Shown here: positions 21,838 through 53,106 of the stretch, piece after piece | Numbering within the stretch: the stretch's first letter is position 1 | Layout: every line of letters begins with the position of its first letter | NCBI RefSeq assembly: GCF_055900595.2 | Contig: NZ_CM148325.1 | Length of the DNA stretch: 64,000 bases | Reading direction: 5' to 3' (one strand) | Notes under the pieces: model-generated | Database searches by the model: none | What the model was told of the DNA's origin: nothing | Seen by the model: the letters and a program-made list of their open reading frames with translations, nothing else | Translations under genes and position numbers: made by a program

Positions 21838-22971
21838 TCAAAACGAAGCTAATTGACCCTGAATCCAGATTTGTTGCACATACAGTCCGCTATTCAGCGC
21901 AACGACGCTGGCGCGTTTGCCCGGTTTAAGTGATCCCAGAACACCATCAACACCCAGCATTCGCGCCGGATGCAGCGATGCCATATGGATGGCTTCCGCA
22001 GGCGTTACGCCCGTCAACTCGACCATGTTGCGCACTGCCGCATCGACAGACAGCGTACTGCCCGCCAGCCCACCGGACGCGGTACGGACAACGCCACCGC
22101 GCATCTGCACTTCTTCACCACATAACGTATATTGACCATCCGGCATCCCGGCTGCCTGCATCGCATCAGTTATCAGCACTATTCTCTCTTTCGCACAGCA
22201 ACAACACAGCGACATCGCCGCCGGATGTACATGATGCCCATCGGCTATCAATTCCAGCCAGGCGCGCTTGTCCGTTAAACCCGCGCCAACCATTCCCGGT
22301 TCGCGGTGATGTAATCCTGTCATCCCGTTATAGCAATGCACCAGGCCGTCTGCGCCAGCATCAAATACGGCGCGGGTTTGTTGCCAGGTTGCTGCGCTAT
22401 GTCCCAGCATTACCCGCACGTTCTGCTGTTTAAGATGACGAATGGCTTGTAACGCGCCCGTTTTTTCCGGTGCCAGCGCCACCACGCGCAAGGTATGCCG
22501 TGAAACAGCAATCAATTGATCCAGCTCGGCAATTTCCAGCTCGCGAAACAGCTCCGGCGGATGTGCGCCTTTATTCTGCGGCGTGAAGTACGGTCCTTCG
22601 AGATAACTCCCCAGCACTTGCGCACCAGGTCCACCGCGCTGGCAGCGTAGAGCAATACGTTCCAGCGCCGCATGAATGGTATTAAGCGGCGCGGTTACGG
22701 TAGTCGGCAACCAACTGCCGACACCTTCCCGTGCCTTGTGCATTGCCAGCTTGTCGAGCACATCCGGCGCGTCATCCATAACATCAACGCCCGCACCACC
22801 GTGTACATGGGTATCGATATAAGCGGGGCAGAGCAGTTCCGCATCGCGTTCAGTCACGCCCACTGGAATCGGTTCGATTGCTGCAATTACACCGTCAGCA
22901 ATATGCAACTGATGATCATCAAGCCAGCCCTCCTCAGTCAGCAGTCTTCTGGCGCGCAGAACGTGTGTCAT
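21838..22971 (-). CDS. agaA: N-acetylgalactosamine-6-phosphate deacetylase AgaA, full length (377 aa)
   Basis: NagA-family metal-binding motif (YIDTHVHGGAG) in translation; start at MTHVLRARR (22971). Confidence 0.85.
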   Translation of the reverse strand: MTHVLRARRLLTEEGWLDDHQLHIADGVIAAIEPIPVGVTERDAELLCPAYIDTHVHGGAGVDVMDDAPDVLDKLAMHKAREGVGSWLPTTVTAPLNTIHAALERIALRCQRGGPGAQVLGSYLEGPYFTPQNKGAHPPELFRELEIAELDQLIAVSRHTLRVVALAPEKTGALQAIRHLKQQNVRVMLGHSAATWQQTRAVFDAGADGLVHCYNGMTGLHHREPGMVGAGLTDKRAWLELIADGHHVHPAAMSLCCCCAKERIVLITDAMQAAGMPDGQYTLCGEEVQMRGGVVRTASGGLAGSTLSVDAAVRNMVELTGVTPAEAIHMASLHPARMLGVDGVLGSLKPGKRASVVALNSGLYVQQIWIQGQLASF

Positions 22972-23402
22972 ATTCCTTCCTCGACCGGACATTCTTCATG
23001 GCAGCGGCCTAACTCGTCTACCAGACTGGTCAGCCCACGGTGTCCACACTCCAGCGCCTGCACACGGAATTCTTCACCGCTTAACCCTTCGCGCTCCAGC
23101 ACCATTTCCAGTAACAGTTGCAAATTGGTGCCGGTGATCACTTCATAGCCCGGTTTTTGCATCGCCAGCGTTGAAGCCACGCGAAACGGTGTGCCGCCCA
23201 GCAAATCTGTCAGAAAAACAATGCCGTCTTCACAATCCAGTTGGGCGATGGCTTCTTCAAGCTGCGATGTAAGCAGCGCAGTGCTTGAGGTTTCCGGAAA
23301 ATCAATGGCGATAAACTGCGACTGCTCGCCGAGGATTTGCTTCATTGCTTTTTCCATGCCGCTGGCAAATCCGCCATGCCCTGTCAAAATAATACTTAAC
23401 AT
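22968..23402 (-). CDS. agaF: PTS mannose-family EIIA component (144 aa)
   Basis: Translation recognised as AgaF; overlaps agaA start. Confidence 0.85.
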   Translation of the reverse strand: MLSIILTGHGGFASGMEKAMKQILGEQSQFIAIDFPETSSTALLTSQLEEAIAQLDCEDGIVFLTDLLGGTPFRVASTLAMQKPGYEVITGTNLQLLLEMVLEREGLSGEEFRVQALECGHRGLTSLVDELGRCHEECPVEEGI

Positions 23403-23419
23403 CTAATACCTCATTGTAT

Positions 23420-24304
23420 TTAAAGGAAATGACAGAATTTACCGACGATGCCAAGAACCACGGTAACCGCAATCAGGCGCAGCGGACTCCAGCCGCGGCG
23501 TACCAGCCAGAACATGGTCAGGGTGTAGACCAGCGGTAAGAAGGCAGGCATCAGTTTGTCGATAACGTCAGCCTGCAGCTTAACCACTGCGTCGCCCGCC
23601 GTGATTTCCAGCGTGGTGCTTAAACGAACATAGGTTGCCACCAGCGCGCCGATTACCGTCATCCCAACGATTGACGCAGCATGGCCGACTTTTTTGGTAT
23701 TCGCTTTAATGAGTGGAATCGCCGCCACGCCCATGCGGTAAGCATAATGCGCCAGACCAAAACGCAGCCCCAGGTGTACCACGTTGAACAGCACAATAAA
23801 GACGACTGCGCCAAGAATAGAGCCTTGCAATGCCAGACTGGCTCCAATCCCGCCACAAATCGGCAGTAACGTTAGCCAGAACATGGCATCGCCAATCCCG
23901 CCGAGCGGCGCACCGACGGCAATTTTGGTGCTCTGAATACTGTTAACGTCCTGCTTAGAACGCTCCATCGCAAGGATAATGCCGATAACAAACGTCACCA
24001 GAAACGGATGGGTATTGAAGAAACCCATATGTCCCTTCATGGCGCGCGCCAGGTCGCGTTTATTAGTGTGGATCTTTTTCAGAGCAGGCAGCAGACCGTA
24101 CAACCAGCCGGAAGCCTGCATACGTTCGTAGTTAAAAGACGCTTGTAACAGCATGGAACGCCAGGCGACGCGGTTGATATCTTTTTTCGTCAGCTCTGCG
24201 CCAATGCTCTGATCTTCATACACGTTTTCATTGACGCCTGTCAGCAGTGTCTCTTCATTTTCGCTGACGTTCGGCAGGGTGGTTTGATTAGATGCCATCT
24301 TCAA
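23420..24304 (-). CDS. agaE: PTS mannose-family EIID component (galactosamine)
   Basis: Paralog of AgaD in translation. Confidence 0.85.
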   Translation of the reverse strand: MKMASNQTTLPNVSENEETLLTGVNENVYEDQSIGAELTKKDINRVAWRSMLLQASFNYERMQASGWLYGLLPALKKIHTNKRDLARAMKGHMGFFNTHPFLVTFVIGIILAMERSKQDVNSIQSTKIAVGAPLGGIGDAMFWLTLLPICGGIGASLALQGSILGAVVFIVLFNVVHLGLRFGLAHYAYRMGVAAIPLIKANTKKVGHAASIVGMTVIGALVATYVRLSTTLEITAGDAVVKLQADVIDKLMPAFLPLVYTLTMFWLVRRGWSPLRLIAVTVVLGIVGKFCHFL

Positions 24305-25067
24305 ATTCCTCTTTCTGTGCCGCAGGTTGAGTCGGTTCAGGAGATTTACGCAGCAAGTCGATCAGCGCCATCGCCAGCGCGGCGGCAGCAATAGCCAGCA
24401 CCGGTAACTTGAGCCAGGCTGCGGCAACAAAGCCCAGGATGAAGTAGGGGATGTAGACGTTTTTCATCATGATTTTCAGCAGCACGGCAAAACCGATTGC
24501 TGGCATGATGCCACCCGCGACGCCGAGGCCGTCGATTAATCGTTGCGGCAGGACATCAATGATGGTTTTGGCATGTTCTGCGCCGAAGTAGATAGGCAGG
24601 AAAGCGCAGAGAAAATAGAACGTGCCGAGTGCCAACAGTGCCAGATAGTTCACGCGTTCAATGCCGCGTGTATCGGCGTTCTCCGCCATCCGGTCGCAGC
24701 GGGACATTACGCCAGACATCACCGAGAACAGGAAGGTAATCCCCATCTGTACTGCGACAGCGAAAGGTACGGCGACACCGACCGCGACATCCGGTTTCAC
24801 GCCAGTAGTAATGGCAAACGCCGTGCCGACGATAGTTCCGATAATCACGTTAGGCGGCTGTGCGCCCGCCAGTGGTGCCAGCCCCATCCACACCAGTTCC
24901 AGCGTACCGCCGGTTAAAATACCGGTATGCAGATCGCCAAGCACCAACCCAACTAACGGGCCGAGGACCACCGGGCGGTGCATATGGGTCAAGCCGTTAA
25001 ACATATCCAGGCCAGCGATAAAGGCGATAATGCCCAACGCAAATGCCTGCAACAGACTGATTTCCAT
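24288..25067 (-). CDS. agaW: PTS mannose-family EIIC component, full length (259 aa)
   Basis: Paralog of AgaC in translation; overlaps agaE start by 17 nt. Confidence 0.85.
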   Translation of the reverse strand: MEISLLQAFALGIIAFIAGLDMFNGLTHMHRPVVLGPLVGLVLGDLHTGILTGGTLELVWMGLAPLAGAQPPNVIIGTIVGTAFAITTGVKPDVAVGVAVPFAVAVQMGITFLFSVMSGVMSRCDRMAENADTRGIERVNYLALLALGTFYFLCAFLPIYFGAEHAKTIIDVLPQRLIDGLGVAGGIMPAIGFAVLLKIMMKNVYIPYFILGFVAAAWLKLPVLAIAAAALAMALIDLLRKSPEPTQPAAQKEEFEDGI

Positions 25068-35176: not shown

Positions 35177-35553
<377 letters not shown>

Positions 35554-35564
35554 ATTTTAACGAA

Positions 35565-35596
35565 AACCCGCCAGCGTAAACTGGCGGGTTTTTGCT
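35565..35596 (+). terminator. Rho-independent terminator of rnpB
   Basis: cccgccag-cgtaaa-ctggcggg hairpin followed by TTTTT. Confidence 0.7.
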
Positions 35597-35825
35597 TTTG
35601 AGGAGGGTGGTCGGAAAGATGAACGTCTTATCTGGCCTACAAAACAACGAAAATTCAATATATTGCACAGAGGCAATGTAGGCCTGATAAGCGTAGCGCC
35701 TCAGGCAATTTTGTGTTTATCATCAGTCTCGAATCTGCTTCGGCAAGCTTTTACTTTTGGTGCAGACGGAAAGATGAACGAATATCTAAGCTATTAATAA
35801 TAGACTTTGCAAGAAATCATTACAT

Positions 35826-36995
35826 TTATATTTCATTTAAAAGATCGTAATCATACGTATATTCTTTGCTAATAAAACGACACTCGTTGAAGCTAAATTC
35901 ATCGTCTGAAAAGGAATTGTCAACAGAATCTCTTTCTTCCTCCAGGCTATTATCTGAAAGCAAGTCGTTTGAGTTAGTATAATCTAGGTTGTAATCGACA
36001 GTATAATTAATTTCTGGATTGGTTTGGTAATCATTTTTTTTGACGCAATCATATTCCTCAATAATTTTGTCGATATAATCATATGCTTTTTCTAATGAGA
36101 AGTTTTTCATCTCTGGTAATTTAACTTTGCTCAAATAATTATTAATTTTTGAGGAGTTTTTATATATGCTTTTTGTTAATTCTTTTTCTAATTTGTCTGT
36201 TATATTTGCTGTTGGTATGGATTTTATAATCGCATATCTCATGATTTTTAATTGATCTTCGGTTAAATCTCCAAGCTCATTTAAACAACTTTCGACAAAG
36301 TTGATTTTTTCTCTGGAATAATCATCGCTGATACTTGTTAACGCTGGGGTGATTTTTAATAAAGAATTCCATGAGATAGTACCATTGTGTGTCGAACGCA
36401 TAAAATTTATATTGTACATATTGGTTTTAGTAAACTTTGTTGCAAACAATGTAAAGGGATCTAAAGTCGCGTAAGCCATATGTTTATTTGAAAAATCATA
36501 ACCAGTTAAATCGACGTTATGCAAGTCCAGATAGGATAAATCTATTACGTCGCCTGCTCCAGAGCTAAAGATTACATTTAATCTTCTGATTTCATTGTAA
36601 ATTCCCTCTAATGAACAATTTGTGTTCATGATGTCTGCTGAAATTTTTATGTTATTTAACGGTTCACAAATTATAAGCTTGCAGGTATTGTCTGATCGTT
36701 GCGTTATTTGGGCATTATAACCTAAAAAGTCTATGCGAAGAGACGAGTTATTATAAAGTATTACATTTTTTAAGTATGCTAATTCTTGTTGAAAATCACC
36801 ATCGATAATACATGTTCCACCAGGTTGCAACGCGCAGATTAACGTGAGCATTTGATTAGAAGTCTGTTTTAGTTTTACTACACCTGGTGCTAGTGCTTTG
36901 AGGTCATTTATTATGGGGGTTTCAGGAATGTCATTCATTTTTATACGTACTAAATCATTACCTAAGTCATTACCTATTGATGAAACCGGGAACAT
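35826..36995 (-). CDS. yhaC: Uncharacterised protein YhaC, AT-rich gene (389 aa here)
   Basis: Long ORF with Asn/Ile/Tyr/Lys/Asp-rich composition and low GC; pentapeptide-repeat-like stretch (DLSYLDLHNVDLTGYDFS); acidic Ser/Asp/Glu-rich C-terminus. Confidence 0.8.
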   Translation of the reverse strand: MFPVSSIGNDLGNDLVRIKMNDIPETPIINDLKALAPGVVKLKQTSNQMLTLICALQPGGTCIIDGDFQQELAYLKNVILYNNSSLRIDFLGYNAQITQRSDNTCKLIICEPLNNIKISADIMNTNCSLEGIYNEIRRLNVIFSSGAGDVIDLSYLDLHNVDLTGYDFSNKHMAYATLDPFTLFATKFTKTNMYNINFMRSTHNGTISWNSLLKITPALTSISDDYSREKINFVESCLNELGDLTEDQLKIMRYAIIKSIPTANITDKLEKELTKSIYKNSSKINNYLSKVKLPEMKNFSLEKAYDYIDKIIEEYDCVKKNDYQTNPEINYTVDYNLDYTNSNDLLSDNSLEEERDSVDNSFSDDEFSFNECRFISKEYTYDYDLLNEI

Positions 36996-37016
36996 TATTT
37001 TATCCTTTTTAAATAA

Positions 37017-37556
37017 TCAATGAGAATCATGATTAAAATGATCTGGTGAAAAAAAGAGAATTTGCCAACAATCTGAAACATTGTCAGTTTTATTAAAATG
37101 ATTAAATTCCGTTAAGATAACTTCTTTTTGCGTGAACTTTGCGCAAAACTTAAAAATTGTCTCCTTGATACACTCCAGATCTTTTCTATTGATGGCTGAA
37201 CAAGTACATTTTTCGCCAAAAGGTGAAAATGTGCCTACATCTAAAGTTTGTATTATATAATCATCATTTACTCCTGTAGAAATATCTATGATGAATGGAC
37301 TTCTATTTTCCGGTTGGATTCGGATCATTACAGAAGAAACATCACCTTTATAGACATTCAATGCAGTAATCGCAGATAATATTCTCCGCAATTCATTGCT
37401 TATGCTGTAAATTTCATTAACGTCATTTGTCGATATAATCTCGGCAAATTTTATTTTTACCTTCCAATAATCAATGTTTCTATTATAAGTGTTAACAGTT
37501 TCGTACATTGGTGGTATCGAAGGGGGTAAAAAATGTGAAACCGAATAACCTTTCAT
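37017..37556 (-). CDS. yhaB: Uncharacterised protein YhaB (179 aa)
   Basis: AT-rich ORF 21 bp downstream of yhaC on the same strand; start placed at MKGYSVSHF (37556); ORF track extends to 37586. Confidence 0.75.
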   Translation of the reverse strand: MKGYSVSHFLPPSIPPMYETVNTYNRNIDYWKVKIKFAEIISTNDVNEIYSISNELRRILSAITALNVYKGDVSSVMIRIQPENRSPFIIDISTGVNDDYIIQTLDVGTFSPFGEKCTCSAINRKDLECIKETIFKFCAKFTQKEVILTEFNHFNKTDNVSDCWQILFFSPDHFNHDSH

Positions 37557-37794
37557 TGATGCCTGCCTTGTCATCATGACAAACAATAATCAATGCTTAT
37601 TTTCCTTGCACGGTTCGCTCACAACTATCAAAAAACGCTCAATTACCTGGCATTACAGTCAACGAAGCAAAATTCTGTGGTCTACAACGATGTAAAGCAC
37701 AACGAAAATCCTCCTTGTTCTCTTATTCTGATCGTATAGCGATGAACATCAATTATTCGTTTTGTGATCATCAACACAAAATGCTATTTAGTAA

Positions 37795-38169
37795 CTATGG
37801 TGACAGTAGAAACGAGGGGAAACGATTGCATTCACAAAATGACGTCCTGTAAGAAGGGTGAAAGTTGATGTTAATCAATTGTTCGAGATGATCAATATCT
37901 GTATTCGAAATTTTAAAACATTGATAAAATAAATGTTTGCCCTCCAACAAATAGCGAGAAAAAATGTGACGTGCCGCATTATTTATCGCTGAAAATGATT
38001 TATTTATAATAAAATTTGATAACTTGCTCATAAAATTTAACTCAAAATTTGCCTGGTAATTATCCGCTAATTGCTTGAAATATGGTCGCAGCTGCTTTTT
38101 TTTATTAACCACATAACGAATGATGTTATCGCCATAAAATATGGTTATCCCTGTCATTTTTTTTGACAA
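37795..38169 (-). CDS. tdcR: Putative threonine dehydratase operon activator TdcR; start codon uncertain
   Basis: AT-rich ORF divergent from tdcA at the position where tdcR lies; in-frame alternative starts at MTGITIFYG and MSKLSNF; the annotated protein may be shorter than the 124-aa ORF. Confidence 0.55.
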   Translation of the reverse strand: MSKKMTGITIFYGDNIIRYVVNKKKQLRPYFKQLADNYQANFELNFMSKLSNFIINKSFSAINNAARHIFSRYLLEGKHLFYQCFKISNTDIDHLEQLININFHPSYRTSFCECNRFPSFLLSP

Positions 38170-38266
38170 AAATCAGGGTTTATGCTGATTTATATACTTT
38201 AACTTATTGATATATAAAAGCATTTAATTGATACAGTGATATCCAGAAAAGTATTGAAAGTTAATT

Positions 38267-38282
38267 TGTGAGTGGTCGCACA
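38267..38282. promoter_or_regulatory. Candidate CRP site in the tdc promoter
   Basis: TGTGA-gtggtc-gCACA (one mismatch from TGTGA-N6-TCACA), about 70 bp upstream of the tdcA ATG; tdc is known to be cAMP-CRP dependent. Confidence 0.5.
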
Positions 38283-38345
38283 TATCCTGTTCATTTCATT
38301 TTGATACACTTCATGCCGTCAATGAGGTTATTAACGTAGGTAGTT

Positions 38346-39284
38346 ATGAGCACTATTCTTCTTCCGAAAACGCAGCATCTGGTAGTCTTTCAGGAAGTCA
38401 TTAGAAGTGGCTCTATCGGCTCGGCTGCAAAAGAATTAGGGTTAACTCAACCCGCCGTCAGTAAAATCATTAACGATATTGAAGACTATTTTGGTGTGGA
38501 ATTAGTGGTGCGGAAAAATACCGGTGTAACATTAACACCTGCCGGTCAATTGTTACTCTCCCGTTCCGAATCCATTACCCGTGAAATGAAAAATATGGTG
38601 AATGAGATAAGCGGTATGTCTTCTGAGGCGGTGGTGGAAGTCTCGTTTGGTTTTCCTTCATTGATTGGTTTTACTTTTATGTCCGGGATGATCAACAAGT
38701 TCAAAGAGGTGTTCCCGAAAGCGCAGGTTTCTATGTATGAAGCGCAACTGTCTTCGTTCCTACCGGCAATCCGCGACGGTCGCCTGGATTTTGCGATTGG
38801 TACGTTAAGCGCAGAAATGAAGCTTCAGGATTTACATGTTGAGCCACTGTTCGAGTCCGAGTTTGTGCTGGTAGCCAGTAAGTCCCGAACATGCACCGGC
38901 ACCACCACGCTGGAGTCGTTGAAGAACGAACAGTGGGTGTTGCCACAAACCAATATGGGGTACTACAGCGAGCTGCTCACCACGTTACAAAGAAATGGCA
39001 TCAGTATTGAAAACATCGTTAAAACCGACTCAGTCGTGACAATTTATAATCTTGTTCTCAATGCTGATTTCTTAACTGTAATTCCTTGTGATATGACTTC
39101 ACCTTTTGGTTCTAATCAATTTATTACTATTCCGGTTGAAGAAACATTACCTGTGGCACAATATGCCGCGGTATGGTCGAAAAATTATCGTATTAAAAAA
39201 GCAGCATCGGTTTTGGTGGAATTAGCCAAAGAGTATTCATCTTATAATGGGTGTAGACGAAGGCAATTAATTGAAGTTGGTTAG
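38346..39284 (+). CDS. tdcA: LysR-family transcriptional activator TdcA (312 aa)
   Basis: Translation recognised as TdcA; N-terminal HTH. Confidence 0.95.
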   Translation: MSTILLPKTQHLVVFQEVIRSGSIGSAAKELGLTQPAVSKIINDIEDYFGVELVVRKNTGVTLTPAGQLLLSRSESITREMKNMVNEISGMSSEAVVEVSFGFPSLIGFTFMSGMINKFKEVFPKAQVSMYEAQLSSFLPAIRDGRLDFAIGTLSAEMKLQDLHVEPLFESEFVLVASKSRTCTGTTTLESLKNEQWVLPQTNMGYYSELLTTLQRNGISIENIVKTDSVVTIYNLVLNADFLTVIPCDMTSPFGSNQFITIPVEETLPVAQYAAVWSKNYRIKKAASVLVELAKEYSSYNGCRRRQLIEVG

Positions 39285-51195: not shown

Positions 51196-52092
51196 ATGGC
51201 CAAAGAAAGGGTATTAACGCTGGAAGCACTACGGGTTATGGATGCGATCGATCGCCGGGGCAGTTTTGCGGCGGCGGCGGATGAGCTGGGACGCGTGCCT
51301 TCCGCACTTAGCTACACCATGCAAAAACTAGAAGAAGAGCTGGATGTGGTGTTGTTTGACCGCTCGGGCCATCGCACCAAATTCACCAATGTCGGGCGAA
51401 TGTTGCTGGAGCGAGGGCGCGTTTTGCTGGAAGCCGCAGATAAACTGACTACCGATGCGGAAGCTCTCGCGCGCGGTTGGGAAACGCATCTCACCATTGT
51501 GACCGAAGCGCTGGTACCGACACCTGCCTTTTTCCCGTTAATTGACAAACTGGCGGTAAAAGCCAATACCCAACTGGCAATCATCACTGAAGTGCTGGCA
51601 GGGGCGTGGGAACGGCTGGAGCAGGGGCGGGCGGATATTGTTATCGCGCCGGATATGCATTTTCGCTCCTCGTCGGAGATCAACTCGCGCAAACTCTATA
51701 CCTTAATGAACGTCTATGTTGCCGCGCCTGATCACCCGATTCATCAGGAGCCGGAACCGTTATCTGAAGTGACGCGCGTGAAATATCGTGGAATTGCGGT
51801 GGCGGATACCGCTCGTGAGCGCCCGGTGTTGACCGTACAGCTGCTGGACAAACAGCCGCGCTTAACGGTGAGCACGATTGAAGATAAACGTCAGGCATTA
51901 CTGGCGGGGCTTGGCGTGGCGACGATGCCGTATCCGATGGTCGAAAAAGATATTGCGGAAGGGCGGTTGCGTGTCGTCAGCCCGGAATCGACCAGCGAGA
52001 TCGATATTATTATGGCCTGGCGTCGTGACAGTATGGGGGAAGCGAAATCCTGGTGTCTGCGGGAAATTCCCAAACTTTTTAGCGGAAAATAA
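51196..52092 (+). CDS. yhaJ: LysR-family transcriptional regulator YhaJ (298 aa)
   Basis: Translation recognised as YhaJ; N-terminal HTH. Confidence 0.9.
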   Translation: MAKERVLTLEALRVMDAIDRRGSFAAAADELGRVPSALSYTMQKLEEELDVVLFDRSGHRTKFTNVGRMLLERGRVLLEAADKLTTDAEALARGWETHLTIVTEALVPTPAFFPLIDKLAVKANTQLAIITEVLAGAWERLEQGRADIVIAPDMHFRSSSEINSRKLYTLMNVYVAAPDHPIHQEPEPLSEVTRVKYRGIAVADTARERPVLTVQLLDKQPRLTVSTIEDKRQALLAGLGVATMPYPMVEKDIAEGRLRVVSPESTSEIDIIMAWRRDSMGEAKSWCLREIPKLFSGK

Positions 52093-52109
52093 TATTTGTT
52101 ATTTTTAAT

Positions 52110-52132
52110 AAAAAGGGGCGAAATATCGCCCC
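52110..52132 (-). terminator. Hairpin terminator downstream of yhaI (also 3' of yhaJ)
   Basis: ggggcg-aaatat-cgcccc; on the minus-strand transcript the hairpin is followed by UUUUU. Confidence 0.55.
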
Positions 52133-52142
52133 AATTCTAAGA

Positions 52143-52499
52143 TTAATTTGAACCAAACTTCGGATCGTTTCCGTAACGATTGCTGCCAGAATTGCCTTCT
52201 AAACAGGCAAATACAAACAGAACTAACCAGCCAATGACCGGTACCAGATAGAGAAGCGCCCACGCACCTGAACGGTCAGTATCGTGCAGACGACGAACGC
52301 ACAGAGCAATGACCGGAATGATTGTTGCTGCCAGGTAAATGAGAGAAAGGAATGGAAACTCTAAACCTAAAATCAATTGAATGACATTGATAATAGTGCC
52401 GACGATGGCGTTAATCAGAGTAAACATCCAGTACTCTTTACGACGTGCACGACCAGAGAAACCAACATAATTTTTTAATACGGCTAAATACAACTGCAT
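52143..52499 (-). CDS. yhaI: DUF805 inner-membrane protein YhaI (118 aa)
   Basis: Paralog of YhaH (shared LKNYVGF-GRARRKEYWMF…RRLHDTDRS motifs). Confidence 0.85.
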   Translation of the reverse strand: MQLYLAVLKNYVGFSGRARRKEYWMFTLINAIVGTIINVIQLILGLEFPFLSLIYLAATIIPVIALCVRRLHDTDRSGAWALLYLVPVIGWLVLFVFACLEGNSGSNRYGNDPKFGSN

Positions 52500-52740
52500 A
52501 AAAACATCCCTTTAATTAAAAGTTGCGAAAGTCTATTCCGGAGATGGAGTAAATGCTATTCGTATCTTTCTTTTTCGGATGTTATAAAGGTTTTGATATT
52601 TAAGATAAATACATGGCCGTTTTTTATATGTAATTTATATAACGACATTGAAATAATTTAAATAAACATTAGTAGATTATTTATTCATCAACATGATGAT
52701 AAAAGCCGGATGAGTCAGACATCCGGCGAGGAGATTTGTT

Positions 52741-53106
52741 TTAAGGTTCCAGTTTCGGATCTGGTCCAAAGCGGTTTTCGCCTGGCGTACCTGCCTGGCA
52801 GTTAAAGACGATGATAATCAGCCAGCCGATAAACGGAATTAAGAACAGCAGTGCCCACCACGCCGAGCGGTCGGTGTCGTGCAGGCGGCGGAACTGAACT
52901 GCCCACCATGGTAAAAACACCAGAATACCGTAGATTGTCGTCAGGATGCCTTCGCCACCGGCGCGTTGCCAGCCTAACATTTTATCCAGCAGCCCCAGCA
53001 CGAACGTAAAGATGATGTTGACCAGAATAAACATCCAGTACTCTTTGCGCCGCGCACGGCCCCGGAAACCGACATAATTTTTTAGTACTTTCAGATACCA
53101 GTCCAT
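52741..53106 (-). CDS. yhaH: DUF805 inner-membrane protein YhaH (121 aa)
   Basis: Start at MDWYLKVLKNYV (53106); paralog of YhaI. Confidence 0.85.
   Translation of the reverse strand: MDWYLKVLKNYVGFRGRARRKEYWMFILVNIIFTFVLGLLDKMLGWQRAGGEGILTTIYGILVFLPWWAVQFRRLHDTDRSAWWALLFLIPFIGWLIIIVFNCQAGTPGENRFGPDPKLEP

Follow-up and report, generated by a model that had tools for sequence, protein, structure and literature searches.

A rare, divergent haplotype of the Escherichia yhaB-yhaC insertion between rnpB and the tdc control region

Gene content and base composition of the rnpB-tdcA interval

We analyzed a 64,000-nucleotide (nt) stretch of Escherichia coli DNA (contig NZ_CM148325.1 of NCBI RefSeq assembly GCF_055900595.2; hereafter the window, whose coordinates are used unless another locus is named). 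The subject is its AT-rich interval between rnpB and tdcA, which holds divergent forms of the genes yhaC and yhaB together with the tdcR open reading frame (ORF). E. coli strain Z0117EC0005 was 99.96% identical to the window over 18.8 kb. On the left, the interval is anchored by the conserved RNase P RNA gene rnpB (35177..35553, plus strand; Rfam RF00010, 320 bits, E 4e-105), which shares 99.5% identity with other E. coli and 93.6% with Salmonella and Citrobacter, and by its intrinsic terminator hairpin (35563..35592, plus strand), whose 12-nt arms are 100% complementary and are followed by a T run. The conserved right anchor is tdcA (38346..39284, plus strand), encoding a protein identical to K-12 TdcA with a synonymous distance (dS) of 0.084; here and below, dS and the nonsynonymous distance (dN) were counted pairwise by the Nei-Gojobori method. 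The GC content was 0.59 to 0.60 at 35.0-35.6 kb, over rnpB, dropped to 0.28 by 35.8 kb, stayed between 0.28 and 0.36 across 35.8-38.4 kb and was back to 0.45 to 0.49 by 38.4-39.0 kb, in tdcA. This trough is occupied by three minus-strand ORFs, namely a yhaC-like gene, a yhaB-like gene and tdcR. Their GC content at third codon positions (GC3) was 0.30, 0.26 and 0.34, respectively, compared with 0.43 to 0.60 for the gar and tdc genes, and Asn, Ile, Tyr, Lys and Phe together made up a fraction of 0.37 to 0.41 of their products versus 0.21 to 0.28 for those of gar and tdc. A first-pass annotation of this DNA, made from its letters, had described a sharp drop in GC content just past the rnpB terminator as well as AT-rich codon usage with products heavy in Asn, Ile, Tyr and Lys. 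Since the GC trough, the low GC3 and the residue bias were all measured, this compositional claim is correct. The AT-rich stretch is, however, a composite of an Escherichia-specific insertion and ancestral tdc control DNA. Searches against Rfam identified rnpB only, with no riboswitch or small RNA in the islet.

The yhaC ORF (35826..36995, minus strand) encodes a protein of 389 amino acids (aa) with an isoelectric point (pI) of 4.6 and no transmembrane segment. Residues 1-389 aligned with positions 1-395 of the NCBIfam model NF007262 (570.1 bits, E 2e-171), a score below the equivalog cut-off of 765 bits but nonetheless that of a clear homologue. Its identity to K-12 was 65% at the aa level and 77% at the nt level. 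The yhaB ORF (37017..37556, minus strand; in-frame upstream starts are possible to 37586) encodes 179 aa, with 77% aa identity to K-12 over the full length and 83% nt identity. YhaB is mildly acidic (pI 5.7), and five cysteines in the C-terminal half of the protein are invariant. A precomputed Pfam field, PF27690 (UCP004546), was attached to all 26 YhaB relatives, one of them 99% identical to the window protein, whereas direct profile searches of the window YhaB returned neither PF27690 nor any NCBIfam model. The two genes lie on the same strand, with yhaB upstream and 21 nt between its stop and the yhaC start, and yhaC is preceded by an AAGGA Shine-Dalgarno sequence 8 nt upstream. The short gap and the Shine-Dalgarno sequence fit a single yhaB-yhaC (yhaBC) operon. 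As the window YhaC scores below the NCBI family cut-off, "hypothetical protein" is the annotation of both genes in all carrier genomes.

Age and borders of the yhaBC insertion

In Salmonella enterica and Citrobacter freundii, the gene order garK-rnpB-tdcA is kept, with only ~1.2 kb from garK to tdcA and no called gene in between. The DNA of both species aligned with the window to ~35,599 (93.6%) and resumed at ~37,752, from where it continued to tdcA (~67%); between these two borders they hold merely ~110-190 nt. This alignment gap delimits the Escherichia-specific DNA (35600..37751), which comprises a zone of repeats, yhaC, yhaB and the yhaB leader. The presence/absence check proposed in the first-pass annotation thus found yhaBC missing from an otherwise syntenic garK-rnpB-tdcA junction. 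At the same site, Escherichia albertii lacks yhaC but retains a stub of yhaB that covers aa 8-48 at 58% identity before the frame is lost. Because this remnant lies at the same position, the insertion was in place before the split between E. coli and E. albertii, and its acquisition is old rather than recent. The position and borders of yhaBC were identical in all E. coli examined.

Homologues were restricted to the same genus. Among 5.8 billion proteins searched, relatives of YhaC and YhaB were found only in E. coli and Shigella, and when 1.84 billion cluster representatives were searched by profile, just one full-length YhaC cluster was recovered. In a species-wide scan with one genome for each species, the only hits were two short contigs, JAIJJM010000798.1 (L004) and CAUHML010000178.1 (L005), which we rejected as non-Escherichia homologues, attributing them to E. 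coli contamination. These contigs are binned in the metagenome-assembled genomes that represent two species, a Collinsella sp. and an uncultured Bacteroides sp. On L005, YhaB and TdcR were identical to K-12 and YhaC was 98% identical, and L004 carries a different E. coli yhaC allele (YhaC 87% identical to K-12). No genuine copy of yhaBC was found in phage, plasmid or viral-contig collections; four "plasmid" matches were dismissed since they were 4.8-4.9 Mb chromosomes or a 354-kb record with chromosomal DNA.

Just downstream of rnpB, a 14-nt direct repeat (CGGAAAGATGAACG) was present in two copies, with a chance expectation of 0.02 copies. Copy 1 (35612..35625, plus strand) is in the tail of the rnpB terminator unit and copy 2 (35767..35780, plus strand) is inside a decayed second terminator unit (~35,725-35,785). 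Between them is an inverted pair of repetitive extragenic palindromic (REP) sequences, or bacterial interspersed mosaic element (35627..35691; 15-nt arms, 93% complementary), which has relatives at ~53.2 and 54.4-54.75 kb of the window and also downstream of rnpB in K-12. In the latter, the interval following rnpB (L001 7569-7961) contains a 113-bp unit in 3.5 tandem copies, each made of the last ~45 nt of rnpB, the terminator and "...TTTTGCTTTTGGAGGGGCAGAAAGATGAATGAC...". Copy 1 of the 14-mer matches the "...TTTTGCTTTTGGAGGGGCAGAAAGATGAA..." portion of this unit, and the decayed copy 2 region reads "ctgcttcggcaagcttttacttttggtgcagacggaaagatgaacg", which resembles "cccgcttcggcgggtttttgcttttggaggggcagaaagatgaatg" of the K-12 unit. 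Positions 35,553-35,790 thus hold two copies of the terminator unit, one good and one decayed, with the REP pair in between. Sequence type 131 (ST131) has a single copy without REP, Salmonella has one partial extra copy, and the copy number of the unit after rnpB differs between lineages. The 14-nt repeat pair is therefore a decayed duplication of the rnpB terminator repeat. Since both copies are on the rnpB side, between its terminator and the 3' end of yhaC, and enclose only the REP pair, they are not flanks of the islet. When the rnpB 3' end was aligned locally against the far border (37.5-37.95 kb), the score did not exceed that of shuffled sequence, and the repeat therefore does not mark the limits of the islet. 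The direct repeat reported in the first-pass annotation does exist and does bracket a REP element; its second copy, however, starts at 35767 and not at 35770, and it does not flank the islet.

These observations bear on another origin, in which a horizontally acquired islet yhaC-yhaB-tdcR integrated at rnpB and is delimited by the short direct repeat. The abrupt fall in GC content directly past the rnpB terminator, the copies of the rnpB 3' end or terminator downstream of this gene (3.5 x 113 bp in K-12, a partial one in Salmonella, the 14-mer pair in the window) and the lack of yhaBC in Salmonella and Citrobacter would fit it. On the other hand, both repeat copies are rnpB-proximal with no rnpB-like repeat at the far border, and the only long ORFs between rnpB and tdcA are yhaC, yhaB and tdcR, none of which matches a recombinase or integrase family or encodes another mobility function. 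Furthermore, the insertion has a fixed position with fixed borders in E. coli and a remnant in E. albertii, mobile elements lack copies, and tdcR with the tdc promoter is common to Salmonella and Citrobacter. The integration-at-rnpB model is already largely refuted, and we regard it as highly improbable. Of the unit that the first-pass annotation had drawn, yhaB-yhaC does look foreign, but tdcR and the tdc promoter are ancestral, and its suggestion that a stable-RNA gene served as the integration point was not borne out by an integrase, a flanking repeat or a mobile-element copy.

A rare haplotype of the segment

The yhaB-yhaC pair is already a catalogued, uncharacterized operon of K-12, and what is new here is its divergent allele. 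The window haplotype (at least 98.4% identity) was found in only 18-19 of the 5,426 complete genomes; all the others were 80-90% identical to it or lacked the genes. Nucleotide identities between the window and six K-12-type strains were 77% for yhaC, 83-84% for yhaB, 83% for the yhaB-tdcR spacer, 90% for tdcR, 92% for the tdcR-tdcA spacer and 98% for tdcA, with 97% for garK and 99.5% for rnpB on the other side. In 500-nt steps over the 64 kb, identity to K-12 had a median of 96.4% and a minimum of 75.6% inside yhaC, making yhaBC the most divergent alignable segment of the window. We considered AT-richness as the source of this divergence and ruled it out: the AT-rich stretches at 19.0-19.7, 30.25-31.0 and 39.0-39.5 kb share 97.6-98.6% identity with K-12, so that base composition by itself does not explain the divergence of yhaBC.

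Between the window and K-12, dS was 0.06 to 0.13 in the flanking genes and 0.5 to 0.65 in yhaBC; the islet dS is therefore 5 to 7 times that of the flanks. In other strain pairs this ratio was 1.4 to 3, except for a value of 5.3 in yhaC between two K-12-type subclasses that are ~8% apart. For comparison, the flanking genes of E. coli and E. albertii differ by a dS of 0.38 to 0.79. Over the 41 yhaB codons kept in E. albertii (about a dozen synonymous changes), dS was 0.79 between the window and K-12 and 0.56 to 0.65 between either of them and E. albertii. Since the same 18 genomes alone match the gar flank at 99% identity or more, the haplotype is confined to one rare lineage. One further YhaC allele (P0008, 80% identical), taken from a single 1.5-kb assembly and perhaps chimeric, seems to combine an N-terminus of the K-12 type with a C-terminus of the window type. 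The segment as a whole is thus represented in this strain by a rare, deep-branching haplotype, which may be either an old allele that the lineage retained or imported, or the outcome of a fast clock at this locus in a deep lineage.

Selection and repeated loss

Between the window and K-12, yhaC had a dS of 0.65 and a dN of 0.205 (dN/dS 0.32), and yhaB a dS of 0.52 and a dN of 0.124 (dN/dS 0.24). In all other strain pairs, dN/dS ranged from 0.30 to 0.43 for yhaC and from 0.13 to 0.25 for yhaB, and no 50-codon window exceeded 1. Because dN/dS is well below 1, yhaB and yhaC are real protein-coding genes under purifying selection. Consistent with this, more than 100 alignment columns were invariant across 20 YhaC alleles spanning both allele classes. 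In a study of 92 wastewater E. coli genomes, yhaC was among the top 14 "positively selected" genes (PMC9110714). This signal was not reproduced by our pairwise counts and could have been created by recombination among divergent alleles.

The operon has nevertheless been lost repeatedly. At least 80% of yhaC-yhaB was covered in 4,253 of 5,426 complete genomes (~78%). In ST131, the deletion left three scars, namely the terminal 60 nt of yhaC, an internal fragment of 58 nt and the yhaB 5' end. Strain HCP30S3_I2 (L011 4984-6947) has an IS1 inside yhaC and a frameshifted yhaB, strain KFu022 (L009 6205-7393) has an independent frameshift in yhaC, and many frameshifted forms of YhaB are in the protein database.

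The frequency of these frameshifts, deletions and IS1, the failure of structure prediction for both proteins (see below) and the description of the K-12 region as a silent "promoter island" (PMC3661553) could suggest that the two genes are decaying relics or chance ORFs in an AT-rich spacer, and that the segment matters only as H-NS-binding DNA near the tdc promoter. We find this improbable, given that dN/dS stays at 0.13-0.43 over a dS of 0.5-0.65, that frames and length are kept in both allele classes along with the invariant residues, that Shine-Dalgarno sequences are present and that most complete genomes retain the full-length segment.

The pattern of polymorphism could also be taken to indicate a conflict module (defence, abortive infection or toxin-antitoxin-like) whose old alleles are kept by diversifying or balancing selection. 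In its favour are the deep allelic classes combined with presence/absence polymorphism at a fixed locus, the published ranking of yhaC, the possible mosaic allele P0008 and the 41-codon yhaB distance, which is as large between the window and K-12 as to E. albertii. However, YhaB and YhaC had no match in PADLOC-DB 2.0 at E ≤ 1, they have no nuclease, ATPase or other effector domain, and there are no defence genes in the neighbourhood. Moreover, no 50-codon window reached a dN/dS of 1, recombination may have produced the published selection signal as an artefact, and all carriers of the window allele have one flanking haplotype, showing no spread across lineages. A conflict module of this kind is very unlikely in our view.

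Predicted features of YhaC and YhaB

The central part of YhaC (residues 151-200; 36396..36545, minus strand) consists of ten pentads with a period-5 central Leu, Phe or Met: IDLSY LDLHN VDLTG YDFSN KHMAY ATLDP FTLFA TKFTK TNMYN INFMR. The ten-pentad run was in the same register in the window and K-12 proteins, and none of 2,000 shuffles reached eight. Bona fide pentapeptide-repeat proteins matched the YhaC profile at about positions 140-215, with E values of 3e-9 to 1e-3 in the weak tail of the profile search. Among the Pfam models, PF00805 was not significant on the window YhaC (E 7.4), and PF13599 reached E ≤ 0.1 in 8 of 20 YhaC alleles and E ≤ 0.001 in none. The protein ends in an acidic tail rich in Asp, Glu, Asn, Ser and Tyr (residues 321-389, 69 aa, pI 4.05; 35829..36035, minus strand), which is the most variable part of YhaC (dN 0.30 to 0.41) and terminates in the motif YTY(D/N)YDLLN(A/E)I, kept in 20 alleles. 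Both the pentapeptide-repeat-like stretch and the acidic tail had been noticed in the first-pass annotation, and both hold. No signal peptide or membrane segment was predicted in YhaC.

Such a protein could conceivably be a type III effector with a pentapeptide core, as in PipB2 or EspX, with YhaB as its small acidic chaperone. The pentapeptide repeats, the location in AT-rich, genus-restricted DNA that is H-NS-bound in K-12, the small acidic partner gene directly upstream (YhaB pI 5.7) and the lack of a signal peptide or membrane segment in YhaC all agree with this view. The operon is also deleted in the single B2 strain examined (ST131), and to our knowledge phylogroup B2 also lacks the E. 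coli type III secretion system 2; this co-absence, however, amounts to a single phylogenetic event. No PipB, PipB2, SopA or HECT-effector NCBIfam model was matched at E ≤ 1, which leaves generic repeat similarity only, and YhaB had no match in Pfam, NCBIfam or PDB and so matched no chaperone family. In addition, purifying selection persists in K-12-like commensals, and we know of no working injectisome in K-12, while E. albertii, which carries the locus of enterocyte effacement, has lost the genes. An effector-chaperone pair is unlikely on this evidence.

tdcR and the tdc control region

The right part of the trough (~37.75-38.35 kb), with the tdcR ORF and the tdc promoter, is ancestral AT-rich regulatory DNA and not insertion, because a six-way alignment contains blocks that are invariant across four genera. 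The counterpart interval upstream of tdcA in Salmonella also has a GC content of 22-37%. The tdcR ORF (37795..38031, minus strand, 78 codons) matched NCBIfam NF008507 at 144.6 bits, over the cut-off of 100. Between the window and K-12 it has 1 synonymous and 14 nonsynonymous changes, and between E. coli and E. albertii its dN/dS is ~0.67, with ATA in place of the ATG start in E. albertii. Among the comparison loci (L003 8360-8578, L012 5477-5673, L021 5477-5686), there is an internal stop in ST131, and the ORF is split across frames in Salmonella and Citrobacter. The ORF seems unconstrained as a protein, yet its DNA aligns across genera with invariant blocks. The tdcR region may act mainly as regulatory DNA, judging from these alignments; a literature search on tdcR returned only unrelated acronyms.

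At the left edge of the ancestral control region is a palindrome (37763..37778, TGTGATcatcaACACA) with one mismatch to the CRP consensus, which corresponds to an in-vitro K-12 CRP site labelled "yhaB" (PMC12871828). Across E. coli and E. albertii as well as Salmonella and Citrobacter, neither the core of this site nor its flanks vary. The palindrome, which is ~580 nt upstream of tdcA, is kept in Salmonella and Citrobacter though both lack yhaB. Inside tdcR, a perfect FNR box (37865..37878, TTGATgttaATCAA) is the sole perfect match to the consensus TTGATnnnnATCAA in the 64 kb, K-12 having TTGACgttaATCAA at this site. It corresponds to a K-12 FNR target labelled "yhaB" by chromatin immunoprecipitation (ChIP) (PMC1802558), and is not conserved in E. 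albertii or Salmonella, nor otherwise outside E. coli. A second CRP-consensus-like site (38267..38282), also with one mismatch, is 64-79 nt upstream of the tdcA start and within a 25-nt block that is invariant save one position across the four genera.

Three observations were made outside the islet. A 496-aa E. coli protein (P0164) is a TdcA relative, 100% identical to the query over its whole length, with a reverse-transcriptase match (PF00078) between its helix-turn-helix and LysR substrate domains; this insert could be a group II intron, a retron insertion or a gene-calling artefact. Another AT-rich stretch, in the yhaI/yhaH area (52,000-52,750; GC 0.37-0.42), is unusually divergent, being 88-90% identical to K-12 compared with the median of 96.4%. 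Finally, ~2.3 kb of the N-acetylgalactosamine (aga) cluster at ~22,400-24,700 has no counterpart in a K-12-like genome, and the strain appears to hold an undeleted version of aga because K-12 is annotated with two truncated pseudogenes there.

H-NS and published data on K-12

Two promoter islands have been described at this locus in K-12, of which one spans 706 bp within yhaC and the other lies between tdcA and tdcR; the former was H-NS-bound in all ChIP studies, and both were called foreign by two gene-level methods, those of Nakamura and of Lawrence-Ochman (PMC3661553). The idea, raised in the first-pass annotation, that this is H-NS-bound acquired DNA agrees with these K-12 data. The window segment itself has the composition and distribution of H-NS-silenced xenogeneic DNA, with a GC content of 0.28-0.36 versus 0.50-0.60 and absence from sister genera. 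In a phylostratigraphy study, yhaB-yhaC was listed among young, homogeneous operons without a known function (PMC12218254), and the literature that we searched, including by K-12 b-numbers, assigns no function to yhaB or yhaC. The first-pass annotation had likewise left their products without an assigned function, and they are indeed orphans for which remote-homology searches came back empty.

Proposed model and its significance

The reading that we favour, and hold to be rather probable, is that of an ancient, genus-restricted yhaBC insertion that is constrained, often lost, and represented here by a rare, deep haplotype beside ancestral tdc DNA. In this model, an insertion restricted to Escherichia would have brought a minus-strand yhaB-yhaC operon between the rnpB terminator and the tdc control region, and this operon would encode two soluble, acidic, taxonomically restricted proteins. 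With low confidence, YhaC might contain a 2.5-turn pentapeptide beta-helix, preceded by an N-terminal alpha/beta region and followed by a helical region that has the acidic, Tyr-rich tail. Since in K-12 this DNA is coated and silenced by H-NS according to the literature, the operon is probably expressed only conditionally. YhaB and YhaC would form a dispensable accessory module that acts on another macromolecule rather than a metabolic one. As a tentative suggestion drawn from sequence features, YhaC might be a non-enzymatic binding or mimicry scaffold with YhaB as its co-translated partner. A bolder version, which appears rather unlikely, is that yhaBC is a genus-specific conflict or interaction module (a new type of defence or an effector pair) with alleles as old as the split between E. 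coli and E. albertii, kept by balancing selection or introgression. The window allele would be one of the rare ancient ones, and the beta-helix with the acidic tail would mimic a nucleic acid or a protein.

Several points weigh against the favoured reading of an old, constrained insertion with a scaffold-like product. AlphaFold2 gave a mean predicted local distance difference test (pLDDT) score of 35.7 for YhaC (20-sequence alignment), with no confident fold, and also 35.7 for YhaB (8-sequence alignment); because these models failed, the domain picture of YhaC rests on periodicity and low-confidence secondary structure. This was the structure-prediction check suggested in the first-pass annotation. 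Ten pentads are short for a stable beta-helix, and profile searches of YhaB and YhaC against Pfam, NCBIfam, PADLOC, PHROGs and PDB returned nothing significant beyond their own families. Matches to Pox_VLTF3 (E 5e-4 to 2e-3) and to 5zf1 (E 0.007) were set aside as spurious, arising from low-complexity or helical stretches. Frequent pseudogenization could mean that the module is now decaying in many lineages. Lastly, a fast clock specific to this locus could account for part of the depth of the allele split, as the other strain pairs also show 1.4 to 3 times the flank dS.

Our results narrow down yhaB and yhaC, two function-less genes of K-12, to real, Escherichia-restricted, old genes that were not found on mobile elements, are repeatedly lost and are unusually polymorphic. 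The second natural allele (YhaC 65% and YhaB 77% identical to K-12) will be useful for structure prediction, covariation analysis and allele swaps. The interpretation of H-NS, CRP and FNR binding at the tdc promoter, like the status of tdcR, is affected by splitting the insertion from the tdc control DNA. If selection maintains the deep alleles, the locus joins a small set of ancient polymorphisms on the E. coli chromosome; if not, yhaBC is an ordinary silenced orphan operon.

Comparison with known systems

The closest relative of the segment is yhaB-yhaC of K-12 (b3120-b3121). Its position in the order rnpB-yhaC-yhaB-tdcR, its strand and its 21-nt spacing are the same, the products align over their full length (389 versus 395 aa for YhaC, 179 versus 179 aa for YhaB), and YhaC has the same pentapeptide segment and C-terminal motif. 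The two differ in sequence, with aa identities of 65% and 77% and a dS of 0.5-0.65. Compared with pentapeptide-repeat proteins (PF00805), which include the DNA mimics Qnr and MfpA, the effector beta-helices of PipB2 and SopA, and HetL, YhaC shares ten A(D/N)(L/F)XX-like pentads, and the profile matches to generic repeat proteins are reciprocal, with E values down to 3e-9. Like the Qnr/MfpA type of mimic, it is acidic overall. Unlike these mimics, it would form only ~2.5 helical turns instead of 8 or more; furthermore, the repeat makes up only 13% of YhaC, and likeness to characterized members does not extend beyond it.

As in genomic islands at stable-RNA genes, the foreign-looking DNA starts past such a gene whose 3' end is duplicated nearby. 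In contrast to these islands, yhaBC has neither an integrase nor a distal direct repeat, spans only ~2.1 kb, has no copy on mobile elements and is fixed in place species-wide. The segment resembles H-NS-silenced promoter islands (PMC3661553) in its ~30% GC content, its orphan genes rich in Asn, Ile, Lys and Tyr and its absence from sister genera. Unlike recent arrivals among H-NS-silenced xenogeneic DNA, yhaBC is old and under purifying selection.

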